Under the pieces are notes generated by a model. It ran no database searches. It saw only the letters and a list, made by a program, of their open reading frames with translations, and was not told the DNA's origin. A program made the translations under genes and the position numbers. Of a stretch of 53,856 bases of DNA, positions 15,875-53,634 are shown in pieces. This stretch comes from Candidatus Omnitrophota bacterium (GTDB lineage Bacteria; Omnitrophota; Gorgyraeia; Tantalellales; Tantalellaceae), in contig JBDRIH010000065.1 in assembly GCA_043816025.1 (NCBI GenBank), positions 1-53,856 of the forward strand, read 5' to 3'. Every line of letters starts with the position of its first letter. Position 1 is the stretch's first letter.

Positions 15875-16762
15875 TCACACGCTTTTTCCAAACACAAAAC
15901 ACTGCGTAAGAATAGTGCTCCCACTGCATACCACGGTCAAAAAATCACCCAGCCGCCCCACTATCTCTTCTGGGTAAAAATCCGGGAAACCGTAAAGCTG
16001 GTCAGTTCTGCCAGAACGCAGGCAAAGCCCACTGTCGTCGATAAGCTTTTTTATTGATATGTTGGACCCATGCACGTTGGATGTCTTCTCGGAAAAAGGA
16101 TAGCAGTCGAGAAAAAGGTCTACCGTCGCAACAAAAATGCCGCCGGGCTTCAATAACCGGCATATTTCTTTCATTACACCGGCTACCTGGGCATACGGTA
16201 TGTGCTCCACTGACGACACGGAAAATATCCTGTCAAAATACGCCTCGGGCAGGCCTGCCCGGTCTATATGCTCCCTGATGAAATTTATCTTACCGCCAAA
16301 CACATCGATAAGACGCCTTATTTCGTTCTCCGATGACAGCCATCCGCTGCCAGGCACTATGTTCACCAAAGGGTCCACGCTGGTAACATCCGCGCCGGAT
16401 GCGGCTAAGGCGAACTGGAACCCCGCCCCGCCGGAACCGAAGTCCAGCACCTTCATTCCCTGGATCAACTCGGCTGTAAAAAAGCACCAGGGGTACTCAA
16501 AAACACGCGAATCGCTGTTGGTCTGGAAACCGAACGGCCCCACAAGACGCATAGCCCAAGATGGCAAAGACATCCTTTTCGGCCACAAGAACCTACTCAA
16601 TCTCTTCCCTGGATAAAAAAACCTTCTCCACCACCAGGCGCCAAAAGGCGCGCGGTTTGACCTATTCCATTCAATATATCTTTCTGGCATAACAGATGGC
16701 GCTATCATCTTCTCATGCTCCCATTCTTTTCTTGAACCGTTACCACGGGGCTCATCTACCAA
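15875..16762 (-). CDS. Class I SAM-dependent methyltransferase
   Basis: Contains VLDFGSGGAG and LKPGGIFV. The start is uncertain, with an alternative ATG at 16708. Confidence 0.65.
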   Translation of the reverse strand: MVDEPRGNGSRKEWEHEKMIAPSVMPERYIEWNRSNRAPFGAWWWRRFFYPGKRLSRFLWPKRMSLPSWAMRLVGPFGFQTNSDSRVFEYPWCFFTAELIQGMKVLDFGSGGAGFQFALAASGADVTSVDPLVNIVPGSGWLSSENEIRRLIDVFGGKINFIREHIDRAGLPEAYFDRIFSVSSVEHIPYAQVAGVMKEICRLLKPGGIFVATVDLFLDCYPFSEKTSNVHGSNISIKKLIDDSGLCLRSGRTDQLYGFPDFYPEEIVGRLGDFLTVVCSGSTILTQCFVFGKSV

Positions 16763-18999: not shown

Positions 19000-19030
19000 T
19001 TTTTAACTCGGCGTCTTTTAACGTAACGGT

Positions 19031-19233
19031 TGTTTGCTATGCTCTATCAGAGCCCCTCCGCCCGGTGTGGGAGGCTCCCTGTACGGAGCATAGCAAATGA
19101 CCCTAATCTACCAAATCTTACCAAATCTAACCAGGTTAGTTTAACCTGGTTAGTTTAACCTGGTTAGATTTCGTTTGGCCAGGACTCCTCCGCCTGGTGT
19201 GGACCTCCCCTGTGCGGAGTATGGTAGACGGCC
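19031..19233. repeat. Mosaic intergenic repeat locus L1: H rod, P module with 3 tandem 14-nt units, degenerate H rod
   Basis: H lies at 19033-19097 with a perfect outer stem tttgctatgctc/gagcatagcaaa. P lies at 19103-19171, with ctaaccaggttagt, ttaacctggttagt and ttaacctggttaga at 19127-19168. A second, degenerate H lies at 19172-19233. Confidence 0.85.
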
Positions 19234-19299
19234 ATATCCCGGGATATCTATCAAAGTAATAATATTATATAATACAGTATACTATTAATGGGGTGACTT

Positions 19300-20253: not shown

Positions 20254-20275
20254 ACTCCCGTATAGATAGAACTTA

Positions 20276-20397
20276 AGGTCGTGTTTAAATCAAAAACCAG
20301 GGCCCCTCCGCCCGGTGTGGGAGGCTCCCTGGTAGGAGCATGTCAAACGACCTTAACCTGCCAAATCTAACCAGGTTAGTTTAACCTGGTTAGATTT
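20276..20397. repeat. Mosaic repeat locus L2: H rod with deleted 5' arm plus P module with 2 units
   Basis: The H core ccagggcccctccgcccggtgtgggaggctccctggtaggagcatgtcaaacgacc lies at 20297-20352. The P module ttaacctgccaaatctaaccaggttagtttaacctggttagattt lies at 20353-20397. Confidence 0.85.
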
Positions 20398-26580: not shown

Positions 26581-26717
26581 TAACCTCGCCAGCGGAAAGG
26601 CGGGTTGGGCTGTTCCTACCAGGGCCCCTCCGCCCGGTGTGGATCCTCCCTGTACGGAACAACCCAACCCGCCTTTCTAACCTGCCAGACCTAACCTGGT
26701 TAGATTTGGCAGGTTAA
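26581..26717. repeat. Mosaic repeat locus L3: P half-arm, H rod (B-type stem), full P palindrome
   Basis: taacctcgccag lies at 26581-26592. H lies at 26596-26676 with the stem ggcgggttgggctgttcc/ggaacaacccaacccgcc. The P palindrome ctaacctgccagacctaacctggttagatttggcaggttaa lies at 26677-26717. Confidence 0.85.
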
Positions 26718-26734
26718 CATCCTTGGGGTTCTCT

Positions 26735-27002
26735 TAGACAAAACGGATCTGAGGCCTTTGGAGTGAATTGCGATTTTAGCTTCTTTTTATAGCTTTTGAG
26801 GGACAAAGTGTTAAATATGTTTGACGAGCCCTGAACTATAGTTCGGGGCGAGGAGTTATTTAACACCCCTCAAAAGTTAGAAAAAAAGCGTTAAGAAATC
26901 GCTTCTGAACGAAACCGTGCAAGCCCACGAAGGCCATAAGAAGGTTCCCTGGATAGGAGTTAACGCATCGTCAGGAAAAAGGCCTCAGATCCGTTTTGTC
27001 TA
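26735..27002 (+). mobile_element. M2-A: 268-bp non-coding element with perfect 22-bp terminal inverted repeats (MITE-like)
   Basis: The TIR is tagacaaaacggatctgaggcc (26735-26756) and ggcctcagatccgttttgtcta (26981-27002). It has nested internal hairpins and a second copy at 49588-49853. Confidence 0.75.
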
Positions 27003-32093: not shown

Positions 32094-32180
32094 AAGTTTT
32101 CTTCACTCCTTGCACAATGACCAGTTCATATTAAAATTTGGACTATATATGTTATAATATTACTTCTTAGGTGTCAAATA

Positions 32181-32284
32181 CTAACCTGGTTAGATCTGTC
32201 AGGTTAGGCCGTTTGTCATGCTCCGTACAGGGAGCGGAGGGGCCCTGGTAGGAGTATGGGAAACGGCCTATATTGTCAGGTTAG
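32181..32284. repeat. Mosaic repeat locus L4: P half followed by an inverted, tip-deleted H rod flanked by an 11-nt direct repeat
   Basis: ctaacctggttagatctgtcaggttag lies at 32181-32207. H lies at 32208-32268 and reads ggccgtttgtcatgctcc gtacagggagc ggaggggccctggta ggagtatgggaaacggcc. tgtcaggttag occurs at both 32197-32207 and 32274-32284. Confidence 0.85.
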
Positions 32285-33436: not shown

Positions 33437-33658
33437 CCAGACACTTTCAAAGTAGCAGATTAGTTCACAGAAGTACCGCCTGATGTGGTGGGTATGTCCG
33501 AGCACGGTGTAAAGTTATCTTCCCCATGGGATAAAAATAATTTACACTTCTTTGAATATACTACACCTGAAGTATGCTAATAAAAAAGATAATTTTACAG
33601 CGCGCGCAGGATATGCCTATCACATCAGGCAGCTTCTTCTCTGGGATAAACTATAACC
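33437..33658. repeat. M3 copy 1: ~220-bp long-hairpin repeat immediately 3' of the lipoate ligase gene
   Basis: It is about 85% identical by eye to 34397-34616, at a constant offset of 957 bp. Internal inverted repeats are cctgatgtg (33479-33487)/cacatcagg (33621-33629) and tgtaaagttatctt (33508-33521)/aagataattttaca (33586-33599). Confidence 0.85.
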
Positions 33659-33661
33659 TTT

Positions 33662-34387
33662 TCAGAAGGCGTAGTTCCACTTGGCATTCGAGAATTTCTG
33701 CAGGACCAACGCGTCCAGTTCTTCGAGGTCCTCCTGATCCGGTTCCCATACGTCTTCGGATGGGGAAAACGCACACTTGATCAGTTCCTTTAACTCCTCG
33801 GACGGTATAGGAATATTTGCAATAAAATCCCGGTGAGCACGGCCTTTTCTGTATTCGGGTTCCGTGGCTGGATGTCTGAGCAAAAAAGGTATCTTCTCAA
33901 GATCAAAATCAAAGAGAATTGTCCCATGATGGAGAAAATATTTTCTTTTCCTTGCCTGGGCATTGCCGGAAATTTTCTTCCCGCCCAGAGCAAGATCTGA
34001 TACCGGAAAAAAATCTACTCCGTATCCCCTTGCCTTAAAAATGTCCGAAATATTCCCCAAAATGCGGCGATAGGAATCCCTTACATCCCTGTACATTTTG
34101 TCCCGGTCATAGGAGAGAATAACTGAATAATTGAAGCAGCCCGGCCCCTCGAGCACCGTACCGCCGCCAGAGATGCGTCTTATTATTTTAATGCCGCAGG
34201 CCCGGCACCTGTCGAGAAAACAGTCTTCCGAAGTCCTGCCGGCGCGTCCGACAACGACAAAATAATCCTTCGCGCTCCACAGACGCAATGTCTCCCCCAG
34301 CCGGCCGGATTCGGCTTTAACAAGAAGTAATTCATCCATGGCTATTGTCTCTTCGGGGGTATCGACTGAAAAATCAACAAGTCTCAT
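33662..34387 (-). CDS. Lipoate-protein ligase / octanoyltransferase family protein (LplA/LipM-like, catalytic domain only)
   Basis: 241 aa containing ISGGGTVLEGPGCFNYSVI and GKKISGNAQARKRK (the catalytic lysine motif). Confidence 0.75.
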   Translation of the reverse strand: MRLVDFSVDTPEETIAMDELLLVKAESGRLGETLRLWSAKDYFVVVGRAGRTSEDCFLDRCRACGIKIIRRISGGGTVLEGPGCFNYSVILSYDRDKMYRDVRDSYRRILGNISDIFKARGYGVDFFPVSDLALGGKKISGNAQARKRKYFLHHGTILFDFDLEKIPFLLRHPATEPEYRKGRAHRDFIANIPIPSEELKELIKCAFSPSEDVWEPDQEDLEELDALVLQKFSNAKWNYAF

Positions 34388-34396
34388 CTTTTATGT

Positions 34397-34616
34397 CCCA
34401 GCTCCAGTGTAGCGGATTAGCCTACGGGAGTATCGTCTAATGTGATGGGTATGTCCGAGCACGGTGTGAAGTTATCTCCCCCATGGGATAAAAATAATTT
34501 AAACTTCTTTGAATATACTACGCCTGACGTATGATAATAAAAGAGATAACTTTACAGCGCGCGCAGGATATGCCCCTCACATCAGACAGTTTCTTCTCTG
34601 GACTAAACTGTTACCC
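34397..34616. repeat. M3 copy 2: ~220-bp long-hairpin repeat between gcvPB stop and the lipoate ligase start
   Basis: It is colinear with 33437-33658. Its last 6 nt overlap the gcvPB stop codon region. Confidence 0.85.
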
Positions 34617-39038: not shown

Positions 39039-39169
39039 GATTTCGCTGCGCCTTCGGCTTGCGGCCCCTTCTGTGCTAGCCGTGCAAGCGCGCACGGTGT
39101 CCTGACCACATAAATAACTCGCTAAGAAGTCAGGGAACCTTCTCATAGCCTTCGCAGGCTCACACGGTT
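39031..39169 (-). repeat. Two Y-family modules (Y-variant 39031-39101, Y 39118-39169)
   Basis: The minus strand reads aaccgtgtgagcctgcgaaggctatgagaaggttccctgac, matching 26912-26955 and 49656-49700. The sequence gacaccgtgcgcgc...agaaggggcc...aaatcttgacaag matches 44136-44201. Confidence 0.75.
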
Positions 39170-39170
39170 T

Positions 39171-39299
39171 CTAACCTGCCAGAGATAAGGTGGGTTGGGC
39201 TACTCCTACCAGGGTCCCTCCGCCCGGTGTGGGAGGCTCCCTGTACGGAGTAGCCCAGCCACCTTGCTAACCTGACACATCTAACCTGGTTAGATCTGG
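39171..39299. repeat. Mosaic repeat locus L5: P arm, H rod (B-type stem), P palindrome overlapping the lipA stop
   Basis: ctaacctgccaga lies at 39171-39183. H lies at 39187-39265 with the stem aaggtgggttgggctactcc/ggagtagcccagccacctt. ctaacctgacacatctaacctggttagatctgg lies at 39267-39299. Confidence 0.85.
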
Positions 39300-44022: not shown

Positions 44023-44069
44023 ACAGATCTAACCAGGTTAGTTTAACCTGGTTAGATCTGGCAGGTTAA
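44023..44069. repeat. Mosaic repeat locus L6: P module alone with 2 tandem units
   Basis: The sequence is acagatctaaccaggttagtttaacctggttagatctggcaggttaa. Confidence 0.85.
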
Positions 44070-44084
44070 GCTTAAACCGAGCCC

Positions 44085-49371: not shown

Positions 49372-49471
49372 ATCGGCACACCCCTCCCACTTCATAATAT
49401 TTAACTGGATCAAAGATATTATCACACAAAATAGAACACACCTCAAGCCTAGTTTTTCGGCTAAACTAAGA

Positions 49472-49545
49472 GTCGTTTGACATACTCCTACCAGGGCCCC
49501 TCCGCCCGGTGTGGATCCTCCCTGTAGGTAGCTTGGCAAACGACT
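49472..49545 (+). repeat. Mosaic repeat locus L7: H rod (A-type stem, gatcc-type core) without a clear P module
   Basis: The sequence is gtcgtttgacatactcc taccagggcccctccgcccggtgtggatcctccctgtagg tagcttggcaaacgac. Confidence 0.85.
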
Positions 49546-49587
49546 CTAATCTGCAATGCTCATGTCAGAACATGACTTTTCATCTAC

Positions 49588-49853
49588 GAGAAAAAATGGA
49601 TCTGAAGCCTTTGAGTGAATTGCGATTTTAGCTTCTTTTTATAACTTTTGAGGGAAACCGTGCAAGCTCATGAAGGCTATAAGAAGGTTCCCTGGATAGG
49701 AGTTAACGAATTGCCAGAAAATAGTGTTAAATATGTTTGACGAGCCCTGAACATAGTTCAGGGTGAGGAGTTATTTAACACCCTCAAAAGTTTGAAAAAA
49801 AGCGTTAAAAAATCGCTTCTGAACGAGAAAGGTTTTAGATCCATTTTCCCTAG
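49588..49853 (+). mobile_element. M2-B: second copy of the ~265-bp TIR element, with internal blocks in a different order
   Basis: The degraded TIR is aaaatggatctgaagcc (49593-49609) and ggttttagatccatttt (49831-49847). The Y block lies at 49656-49721 and precedes the hairpin block at 49722-49826. Confidence 0.75.
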
Positions 49854-52589: not shown

Positions 52590-52768
52590 TCTATCCTCCT
52601 TTTTACGTCACTCTCTACGTCCAATAACGTCTCTTCTGGAGATAGAAACAAGATCGCGATCCTAACCCCTCACACTCAACATTATCAAACCCGAGAACTC
52701 CTTGTTACAACCTGCGTAACAAGATTTAACCTAATATCTTTACCATGCCGCCACACCTTTGTCAAGAT

Positions 52769-52809
52769 TTAACCTGACAGATCTAACTTGGTTAGATTTC
52801 GCAGGTTAG
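52769..52809. repeat. Mosaic repeat locus L8: P palindrome alone, with the right arm inside the hydrolase CDS
   Basis: The sequence is ttaacctgacagatctaacttggttagatttcgcaggttag. Confidence 0.85.
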
Positions 52810-53634
52810 AAACGATCTTATGCCCTCGATAAACTGCTTTTTAGAGTCTAAAAAGGCCGTGTTGTGGGTACCTCTTATCCTGAGAAAGGTCTTCGGCTGG
52901 GCCGCCTCGCTAAAAAGCTTCTCTCCCAGGTTAAAAGGAACGATCTCGTCATCCACGCTATGAATGATCAGTTTTGGACAGGCAACGTTTCTTATCTTAG
53001 AGGTAACATCAAACCTGGACGAAAAAACATAATGCGGTATAAACGGATATGCAATTTTTGCCATATCCTTGATGGACGAGAAAGTCTCTTCCGTAATCAA
53101 GGCCCGCACGTTCAGTTCTTGCGCGAGATTAACCGCAACGGCACCTCCTATGGATTCCCCGTAAAGAACGATATCTCCTTCGGCAATTTTGCGTTCTATC
53201 CTAAGATAATCATATGCCGCTTTCACATCTCTATACAAACCTGCCTCGGTCGGTACCCCCGTGCTCTTGCCGTAGCCGCGGTAATCAAAAACAAATACAT
53301 TCATTCCGAGGTTGTGCAATATCAGCACCTTTTCCAGCCTATGACTGATATTCCCGGCGTTGCCATGGCAGAAGACCAGCGTGAGCTTCCCCTGGCTGTT
53401 AGCGATAAACCAGCCATTCAGCCGTTTATTGTCGGATGTCTGGAAAGAGACCTCCTCGAAGGGAAGACCCACCAGTTCAGGCGTAGCGGTAATCTCCCGC
53501 ATCGGAAAATATATGCTGCGTTTTTCGATATACCTTACCGCGATCAGAAAAAGAGCGATAAAAACAACCAGCCATAAGAGTAAATTCACTTTTTCTCCTT
53601 TAGTTTTATAAGCGCGCTCCTTGCGGCGACGCAT
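52792..53634 (-). CDS. Alpha/beta hydrolase with N-terminal membrane anchor
   Basis: Contains HGNAGN and the nucleophile elbow GESIGG, plus a C-terminal D/H region. Confidence 0.75.
   Translation of the reverse strand: MRRRKERAYKTKGEKVNLLLWLVVFIALFLIAVRYIEKRSIYFPMREITATPELVGLPFEEVSFQTSDNKRLNGWFIANSQGKLTLVFCHGNAGNISHRLEKVLILHNLGMNVFVFDYRGYGKSTGVPTEAGLYRDVKAAYDYLRIERKIAEGDIVLYGESIGGAVAVNLAQELNVRALITEETFSSIKDMAKIAYPFIPHYVFSSRFDVTSKIRNVACPKLIIHSVDDEIVPFNLGEKLFSEAAQPKTFLRIRGTHNTAFLDSKKQFIEGIRSFLTCEI

Follow-up and report, generated by a model that had tools for sequence, protein, structure and literature searches.

Rods: hairpin repeats of a new family, widespread between the genes of Candidatus Omnitrophota

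The window, that is, the whole stretch of 53,856 bp analysed here, is the complete contig JBDRIH010000065.1 of a Candidatus Omnitrophota metagenome-assembled genome (MAG). The Omnitrophota are abundant, uncultured and very small bacteria whose genome biology is barely characterised. The window carries the housekeeping genes ispD and thyX, genes for GTP-PEPCK and PFOR, dnaX, glycine-cleavage genes and a gene for an H+-pyrophosphatase, and no transposase or integrase was found among its genes. Seven copies of a hairpin repeat, which we call the rod, lie between these genes. We report that these rods belong to a family of hairpin repeats that has not been described before, lies between genes and is widespread in Candidatus Omnitrophota.

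We call the strand that reads CCTCCGCCCGGTGTGG the C strand, which is the plus strand of the window for six of the copies, and its complement the G strand. With at most one mismatch this core 16-mer matched six sites in the window, all at loci given in an earlier description made from the letters alone (the sequence-only reading). With up to three mismatches there were seven matches against 0.37 expected by chance, and none of 100 shuffles reached seven; the seventh match is an unrelated site at 2237. A covariance model (CM), R1, was built only from 67 copies of other genomes and run on the window with filters off. It recovered precisely the seven intergenic copies that the sequence-only reading had claimed, with E values from 2e-21 to 3.5e-4, and nothing else rose above noise. 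The copies are listed below with their CM scores, minimum free energies (MFE, kcal/mol) and folding z-scores.

19028..19104, plus strand: rod copy 1; version A stem, apex allele GAGGC, C-rich apex strand on plus; CM 51.5 bits, E 4e-12; MFE -42.1, z -6.1.
19160..19233, plus strand: rod copy 2, decayed; 5' arm internally deleted, apex mutated (CCTCCGCCTGGTGTGGACCTCCCC); CM 23.9 bits, E 3.5e-4; no rod fold, z -1.2 (19160-19240 folded).
20278..20353, plus strand: rod copy 3; apex and 3' arm intact, middle of the 5' arm replaced by GTTTAAATCAAAAA; CM 36.3 bits; partial fold, z -3.1 (20275-20356 folded).
26595..26677 (CM 26600-26674), plus strand: rod copy 4, the best preserved; version B stem, apex allele ATCC; CM 84 bits, E 2e-21; MFE -56.4 on the C strand and -60.2 on the G strand, z -7.8.
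32206..32269 (CM 32206-32267), minus strand: rod copy 5, inverted; version A stem, 13-14 nt of the apex deleted; CM 36.7 bits on the minus strand; MFE -31.4 on the C strand against -44.6 on the G strand.
39187..39265 (CM 39190-39265), plus strand: rod copy 6; version B stem, apex allele GAGGC; CM 59.1 bits; z -5.6.
49470..49546 (CM 49472-49546), plus strand: rod copy 7; version A stem, apex allele ATCC; CM 74.2 bits; z -5.7.

Five of the seven copies fold as rods of 65-87 nt (z of -6.1, -7.8, -6.4, -5.6 and -5.7), and two are decayed. All are intergenic; the mechanically called open reading frame (ORF) with a TTG start that covers 49472-49539 begins 61 codons ahead of its ROK domain. Seven copies in 54 kb amount to about one per 8 kb, and about one in five intergenic regions of the contig is filled by a rod. 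The stem occurs in two versions, A and B, and the five compensatory columns reported between them (A:T to C:G, C:G to G:C, A:T to G:C, T:A to G:C and C:G to G:C) proved correct when the arms are read outward from CTCC/GGAG. Two statements on the apex had to be corrected. The apical 14 nt or so had been called dispensable; the apex is in fact the only part conserved in all genomes, and the 32.2-kb copy that lacks it is a degenerate member. The apex had also been described as replaced in two copies, and this difference is merely a 4-5-nt allele, ATCC versus GAGGC.

Copies outside the window were collected by a genome scan and a metagenome scan. Both demanded an exact match to the tip, and the apparent conservation of the tip is therefore inflated. 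The genome scan, which searched one genome per species with the 16-mer, gave at least about 48 matches with the 16-mer at the tip of a long hairpin and at least about 60 chance matches in G+C-rich coding DNA. The metagenome scan gave at least 120 further loci, and the total came to at least 165 distinct full copies. At least 14 copies are spread over 10 contigs of a single MAG, JBDRFA01; other MAGs rich in rods are JBFZAV01, DAOVKF01 and CAZNEE01. The G+C content of the host contigs ranges from 38 to 66%, and the tip is unchanged throughout. Searches of the window and six foreign loci against Rfam 15 returned only a tRNA at the gathering threshold and only chance matches to miRNA hairpins in E-value mode. 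No rod copies were found in IMG/VR, GenBank phages or PLSDB plasmids. Full-text searches of the literature gave nothing relevant, whether for the tip in both orientations or for hairpin repeats of Omnitrophota.

The rod-bearing sources among the matches listed were labelled as Omnitrophota (13 MAGs), Planctomycetia (5), Deltaproteobacteria (2), Bdellovibrionota (one chromosome) and unclassified (2 MAGs). A broad distribution across phyla was considered and was trimmed after the labels had been checked with MurC and Mfd. Sequence CAZNEE010000001.1 (locus L034), labelled 'uncultured Planctomycetia bacterium', carries an ftsW-murG-murC-murB-ddl-ftsA cluster. Its Planctomycetia label is doubtful because the named relatives of its MurC (50-62% identity) are all Candidatus Omnitrophota; judged from these relatives, the label is probably wrong. 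None of the relatives of Mfd from the Bdellovibrionota chromosome is from Omnitrophota, and this rod-bearing chromosome is thus truly outside Omnitrophota.

A family rod is a 60-110-nt hairpin with the consensus GGGCC-CCTCCGCCCGGTGTGG-(ATCC or AGGC; GAGGC in the window)-TCCC. It consists, starting at the base, of a stem of free sequence and up to about 30 bp, two conserved pyrimidine-pyrimidine mismatches, a 5-bp helix NNGGG/CCCNN, and the asymmetric tip CCCC-UCCGC-CCGGU-GUGGA-UCCU. The tip, GGGCCCCTCCGCCCGGTGTGG(ATCC/AGGC)TCCC, is 29 nt long and almost invariant in every recovered copy. On the C strand it folds as GGG / CCCC / UCCGC-CCGGU-GUGGA / UCCU / CCC, with two extra paired bases in the AGGC allele. 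The first search did not demand the 13 tip bases that flank the 16-mer; in about 48 copies they are nonetheless constant, save for the ATCC/AGGC allele. In an alignment of 67 diverse copies 25 apex columns are invariant, part of this invariance being imposed by the search pattern. Few single-base tip changes occurred among 116 matches of R1 in 637 kb, a count that leans towards conserved tips, since the default filters act on sequence and exact matches had been used to pick the loci. Of 103 non-redundant copies, 63 have a C.U mismatch at position 5 below the tip, and a U.C mismatch stands at position 6 or 7. The resulting mismatch loop reads UC/UC or UAC/UAC on the C strand and GA/GA or GUA/GUA on the G strand.

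The remainder of the rod is free in sequence and kept in pairing. Both outer pairs of the 5-bp helix covary, and the stem columns below the mismatches show four to six different pair types each. Stems are shared among the copies of one genome and unrelated between genomes. Neither stem nor foot is conserved across genomes, and GGTAGG is confined to the 'TACCAGGG' stem type. The MAFFT alignment of the 67 copies, each of 75 nt, contains zero gaps, so that it is anchored by the tip and not fitted to the structure. In this alignment 81.3% of the cells are paired; shuffling of the columns lowers the share to 60.6%, and sliding of the register to 36-56%. The alignment has 445 doubly changed cells, as compared to 170 after shuffling, the covariation score is 0.499 against 0.148, and compensatory change was found in 17 of 17 outer-stem pairs. 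The sequence-only reading had seen pairing retained despite sequence change in the A and B versions of the window and had argued that the rod is not merely a decaying repeat. The former holds far beyond that pair, and the latter is upheld. We conclude that the stem is selected, or kept by a strand-specific process, for pairing only, and that the tip and the mismatch loop are selected for sequence.

Isolated stem mismatches between Watson-Crick pairs were then counted on the C strand of the 103 non-redundant copies. A.C or C.A mismatches outnumber G.T or T.G mismatches by 47 to 14 (binomial p = 2.7e-5), and Y.Y mismatches outnumber R.R mismatches by 42 to 9. On the G strand the same mismatches are G.U wobbles and purine-purine pairs, the least destabilising kinds. 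That mismatches favour no strand, as had been stated, is true for the seven window copies and false for the family as a whole. Transitions dominate among the stem mismatches. The sign of the bias is the same for rods that point along the flanking genes and for rods that point against them, which makes the bias a property of the element rather than a trace of transcription-coupled mutation. Folding, too, favours the G strand, in 38 of 53 copies and by 2.9 kcal/mol on average; the strand with the G-rich apex is the better hairpin. The asymmetry is explicable by selection on the G-strand helix or by deamination of that strand while single-stranded. Either one implies a stage in which one specific strand is single-stranded.

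For genes in the foreign loci, which were called as mechanical ORFs, the G strand was co-oriented with 39 co-directional gene pairs and the C strand with 27, which is near random. All intergenic contexts are used, including 11 divergent and 9 convergent regions, and orientation shows no bias relative to local GC skew, taken as a proxy for replication direction (53:52). Among 164 copies the direct repeats in the flanks are no longer than in shuffled pairings, and no general target-site duplication was detected. At three syntenic loci of the nearest relatives (M29 peptidase 76-77% identical, synteny conserved, 44 kb in total) no rod was found with filters off. The collection held no relative above 79% protein identity for comparison of empty sites. 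In a more distant syntenic relative (L191), which is without the thyX region of the window, a rod stands between the convergent stop codons of GHL10 and Sua5; the window has a gap of 5 nt there. Another relative (L131) has about 50 nt between ispD and M29, and the window has 300 nt with two rods at this place. Rod loci are not conserved among close relatives.

Several arrangements of copies were observed. Tandem copies abut at spacings of 80-130 nt, one locus (L022) has three copies within 700 bp, and truncated and nested copies occur. Half rods were found at L037 (2391-2537 and about 7400), L158 (5563) and L229 (4795). Two half rods of different genomes start precisely at GGG/CCCCTCC (the slash marking the break), and one ends directly after ...GGATCCTCC. 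These ends could be points of recombination or cleavage at the tip base. In L037 the lost arm is replaced by another short repeat (TTCACCATTCACCATAAACTATTCAC). No transposase was seen beside the half copies, which abut other repeats; a 704-aa ORF beside one of them looks like a DinG-type helicase as judged from its translation. In seven loci of MAG JBDRFA01 (L013, L031, L037, L059, L086, L088 and L102) a palindromic element of about 235 nt is built around the rod at its centre; its terminal inverted repeats are imperfect, and its ends read (ATA)CCATTTAAACCTGATTGGTATTGT ... ACAATACTGATCAAGTTTAAAGCCGTAT. A rod can thus form the core of longer units that resemble miniature inverted-repeat transposable elements (MITEs). 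In L131, at 1-230 and 1040-1215, an AT-rich ATCGTATATAGTATATCG stretch and two to three copies of GCTCGGAATGACAATCCGGG precede the rod, a mosaic like the bacterial interspersed mosaic elements (BIMEs).

We put the probability at about 50% that rods are a dispersed non-autonomous palindromic element, similar in general kind to repetitive extragenic palindromes (REPs), their REPIN derivatives and MITEs, which has expanded independently in many Candidatus Omnitrophota lineages. Such an element would act as a single-stranded hairpin of DNA or RNA. The active strand would be the one with the G-rich apex, which is the minus strand of the window for six copies. A putative trans-acting protein would read the tip and the mismatch loop, and the rest of the rod would need only to be double-helical. 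This protein may copy or move the element without target duplications, or may have been co-opted to use it. By analogy, the proposed spread would resemble the action of HUH/Y1 enzymes on REP or IS200/IS605 hairpins.

Several observations weigh against a mobile element. No transposase or other partner gene was found, and all-against-all clustering of ORFs from 234 rod-bearing loci showed no protein family that recurs near rods. The ORF clusters that did recur were rejected as artefacts of ORFs reading through the rods themselves, and no parent insertion sequence (IS) with matching ends was found near rods in the 234 loci. A phmmer search of 1.6 Mb of rod-bearing loci with RayT and IS608 TnpA sequences gave a single Y1_Tnp ORF, which has a rod at a distance of 2.2 kb but none flanking it, and which we treat as no more than a lead. 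It is an IS200-like ORF in an AT-rich stretch (L214, 2-538, minus strand; Pfam E 6e-11), clipped by the end of the locus. No insertion polymorphism was shown between near-identical genomes, and gain is not separable from loss because the nearest relative is only 76-79% identical in protein. A REP normally co-varies with its REP-associated tyrosine transposase (RAYT) by species, and a tip frozen throughout a phylum is not predicted. The apical 5-bp helix has one invariant wobble, which reads G.U on the C strand and A.C on the G strand, opposite to the asymmetry of the stem. Template switching that corrects palindromes could yield some of the 'compensatory' changes without selection. Finally, rods with different stems occupy corresponding places in two pairs of distant genomes, in one pair behind a giant ORF (39% aa identity) and in the other upstream of an orthologue (56% aa identity). 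Rods at matching places suggest long residence or function at those sites.

These shared positions fit the strongest alternative, a family of structured RNAs present in many copies, be they small, independent hairpin RNAs or modules of mRNAs, with an invariant tip that would bind a conserved cellular partner. Covariation together with a frozen loop is a classic RNA signature. The tolerance of wobble and purine-purine pairs on one strand fits selection on an RNA helix, and the conserved non-canonical loops GA/GA, GUA/GUA and AGGA/GGGG are typical of RNA motifs. All seven G strands of the window are directed at the next downstream gene, and copies whose G strand is co-transcribed have slightly fewer stem mismatches (1.03 vs. 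1.56 per copy), a weak difference. The internal loops of the G strand show GGGAGGAU and GCGGAGGGG, which we take to be Shine-Dalgarno-like and GGA-type motifs about 15 nt apart. The C strand presumably offers two CCUCC motifs like the anti-Shine-Dalgarno sequence and a GGAUC-CUCC that resembles the 3' end of 16S rRNA. These likenesses make the 30S subunit or a CsrA-type protein candidate partners. Further likenesses of the tip to a DnaA box (TGTGGAT), an F-type nic site (GGTGT/GG), the 16S 3' end, 5S helix IV and 7SL were set aside as 7-9-nt matches in a G+C-rich 29-mer. An RNA family is hard to reconcile with the near-random orientation towards genes (39:27) and the use of every intergenic context, and no consistent promoter or terminator accompanies the copies. 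Perfect 30-bp stems would be RNase III substrates. A density of one per 8 kb, the abutting, truncated and decayed copies, and the lack of copies in the closest relatives fit a repeat better. We regard an RNA family as rather doubtful.

That any long hairpin would do, as an mRNA 3'-end stabiliser, a terminator or an RNase III site that serves the host in cis like a REP without a special partner, seems unlikely to us. Many copies do lie between co-directional genes, some exactly between convergent stop codons (L096, L191), and one stem family is framed by an A-tract and a T-tract like a bidirectional terminator. However, such a role needs neither the invariant 29-nt asymmetric tip nor the conserved mismatches, 11 copies lie in divergent promoter regions, the T-run is absent from most copies, and the nearest syntenic relatives manage without rods. 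No intrinsic terminator was called at any rod, and both orientations occur. We judge equally improbable a structurally neutral repeat whose palindrome is perfected by intrastrand template switching or gene conversion, so that covariation reflects the mutation mechanism. Quasipalindrome correction is an established mutational process, stems are homogenised within genomes, and transitions predominate among the mismatches. Template switching would, however, erase the UC/UC mismatches and the asymmetric tip, and both are kept in every recovered copy; nor does it account for a strand bias of mismatches that holds in either genomic orientation. A recombination site of a known structure-specific system such as the integron attC, which likewise is a single-stranded hairpin of variable sequence with conserved irregularities and whose R-box cores are resembled by the flanking CTAAC/GTTAG of the window, is largely refuted by the lack of any attC or other Rfam match, a hairpin base that varies across genomes, the restriction of the CTAAC module to the window genome, and neighbours that are housekeeping genes, not cassettes, with no integrase.

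A non-autonomous palindromic element thus remains our preferred reading. An unchanging tip amid changing surroundings in dozens of MAGs points to a strong conserved molecular interaction, undescribed so far. We tentatively propose that rods may represent a new class of single-stranded nucleic-acid element, present throughout the phylum in hundreds of copies. Its invariant 29-nt tip and GA/GA-type loop would be the handle for a conserved machine, either a hairpin-mobilising enzyme unrelated to RAYT/IS200 or a core partner such as the anti-Shine-Dalgarno end of the ribosome or a CsrA-like protein. If the partner were a core cellular one, rods would be a dispersed regulatory or sponge RNA system in Omnitrophota. 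Model R1 can be used to annotate rods, which would explain many contig breaks in Omnitrophota MAGs and avert false ORF calls across rods. It also offers a handle for a search for the partner protein by co-occurrence.

The window genome carries a second palindromic module, CTAACCTGNCAGAYCTAACCWGGTTAG (CTAACCTGNCAGAYC-TAACCWGGTTAG), which the sequence-only reading had not mentioned. This P-module follows each window rod, always on the same side. Its consensus is [TAACCTGNCAG]-AYC-[TAACCWGGTTA]-GATYT-[CTGNCAGGTTA], and with at most one mismatch its 12-mer TAACCTGGTTAG gave 17 matches in the window against 0.19 expected. P-modules were found at the following positions, no strand being assigned.

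19105..19171: P-module array of CTAACCWGGTTAG palindromes, between rods 1 and 2.
20354-20397, 26677-26720, 32180-32207 and 39266-39299: P-modules beside other rods, on the same side of the rod each time.
44024..44071 and 52756-52811: P-modules without a rod; at 44024..44071 the CM gave only a generic hairpin signal.

The P-module was not found in 237 of 238 foreign loci and is specific to the window genome. It may be a second small repeat, a preferred site of rod insertion or the binding site of a regulator. An imperfect 11-13-nt repeat, CTAACCTGNCA, flanks both sides of three rod copies and occurs in the window genome only.

Other repeats were noted on the contig. An intergenic element of about 240-270 nt lies at 26735-27002 and 49596-49835, and its copy A is closed by a perfect stem of 25 nt. 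Both copies share all parts, with a module of about 70 nt (AACCGTGCAAGC...GGATAGGAGTTAACG) at a different position in each; this module is also found inverted at 39131-39171. The core of the element has a 79%-identical counterpart with sharply conserved patches beside a rod in a related genome (L182, 7387-7517), and the element has no match in Rfam. A 207-nt direct repeat at 33452-33658 and 34409-34615, 90% identical without gaps, brackets a lipoate-protein ligase gene (33662-34387). Both copies are themselves palindromes, long and imperfect (CCGCCTGATGTGGTGGGTATGTCC ... GGATATGCCTATCACATCAGGCAG), and the contig thus carries another family of hairpin repeats; Rfam gave only chance miRNA-hairpin matches for it. 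The tRNA-Asn at 424-499 was confirmed by ARAGORN and Rfam. A tRNA-Arg(TCG) called by ARAGORN at 16401-16475 on the minus strand lies inside a 295-aa ORF (15875-16762), was not reported by the Rfam tRNA model and is probably a false positive.

Rods can be compared with the known systems that come closest to them. Like REP and REPIN sequences, they are extragenic, dense, imperfect hairpin palindromes in genome-specific sequence families. Both lack target duplications, form clusters or mosaics with other motifs, as in BIMEs, and follow a strand-specific, single-strand logic. REPs and REPINs, however, have a conserved 20-40-nt imperfect palindrome stem and foot (a GTAG-type tetranucleotide) with a variable tip or spacer, whereas rods have a free stem and a 29-nt asymmetric tip frozen across the phylum. 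REPs are served by a cognate single-copy RAYT flanked by repeats, with which they co-vary between species; no RAYT was found in the window or in 1.6 Mb of rod-bearing loci, and the rod tip does not vary. Bacterial MITEs (Correia/NEMIS, ERIC, RUP, Nezha and similar) are likewise short, non-coding, dispersed and able to fold back, with decayed and truncated copies. They differ by a fixed-length target-site duplication and a parent IS with shared termini, whereas rods showed no general duplication and no such IS was found near them in 234 loci. MITE families are also confined to a genus or species and have no invariant phylum-wide module, which rods have.

The palindrome-associated transposable elements (PATEs) derived from IS200/IS605 share with rods the recognition of a hairpin on one strand, the lack of cut-and-paste dependent on terminal inverted repeats and the lack of duplication. 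PATEs have two different subterminal hairpins, at the left and right ends (LE, RE), and a fixed target tetra- or pentanucleotide; the rod is one symmetric hairpin, and its flank repeat CTAACCTGNCA was seen at three copies of the window genome only. In attC and in the single-strand origins (ssoA) of rolling-circle plasmids the folded single strand is functional, as would be the case in rods, and the sequence is free. attC keeps mismatches and extrahelical bases, ssoA keeps the short apical loop CS-6, and rods keep comparable irregularities. The conserved sequences differ in identity and place, and attC and ssoA reside in cassettes or plasmids, whereas rods reside in intergenic regions between housekeeping genes. 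The R''/R' core sites at the hairpin base, the cassette context and the integrase of attC have no counterpart in rods. Because the defining features of REP/REPIN, MITE and attC fail, rods stand outside every named family, although they are of the dispersed-palindrome kind. They invert the REP/REPIN rule of a conserved stem and a free tip and thus offer a natural experiment on selection of a stem for structure only.

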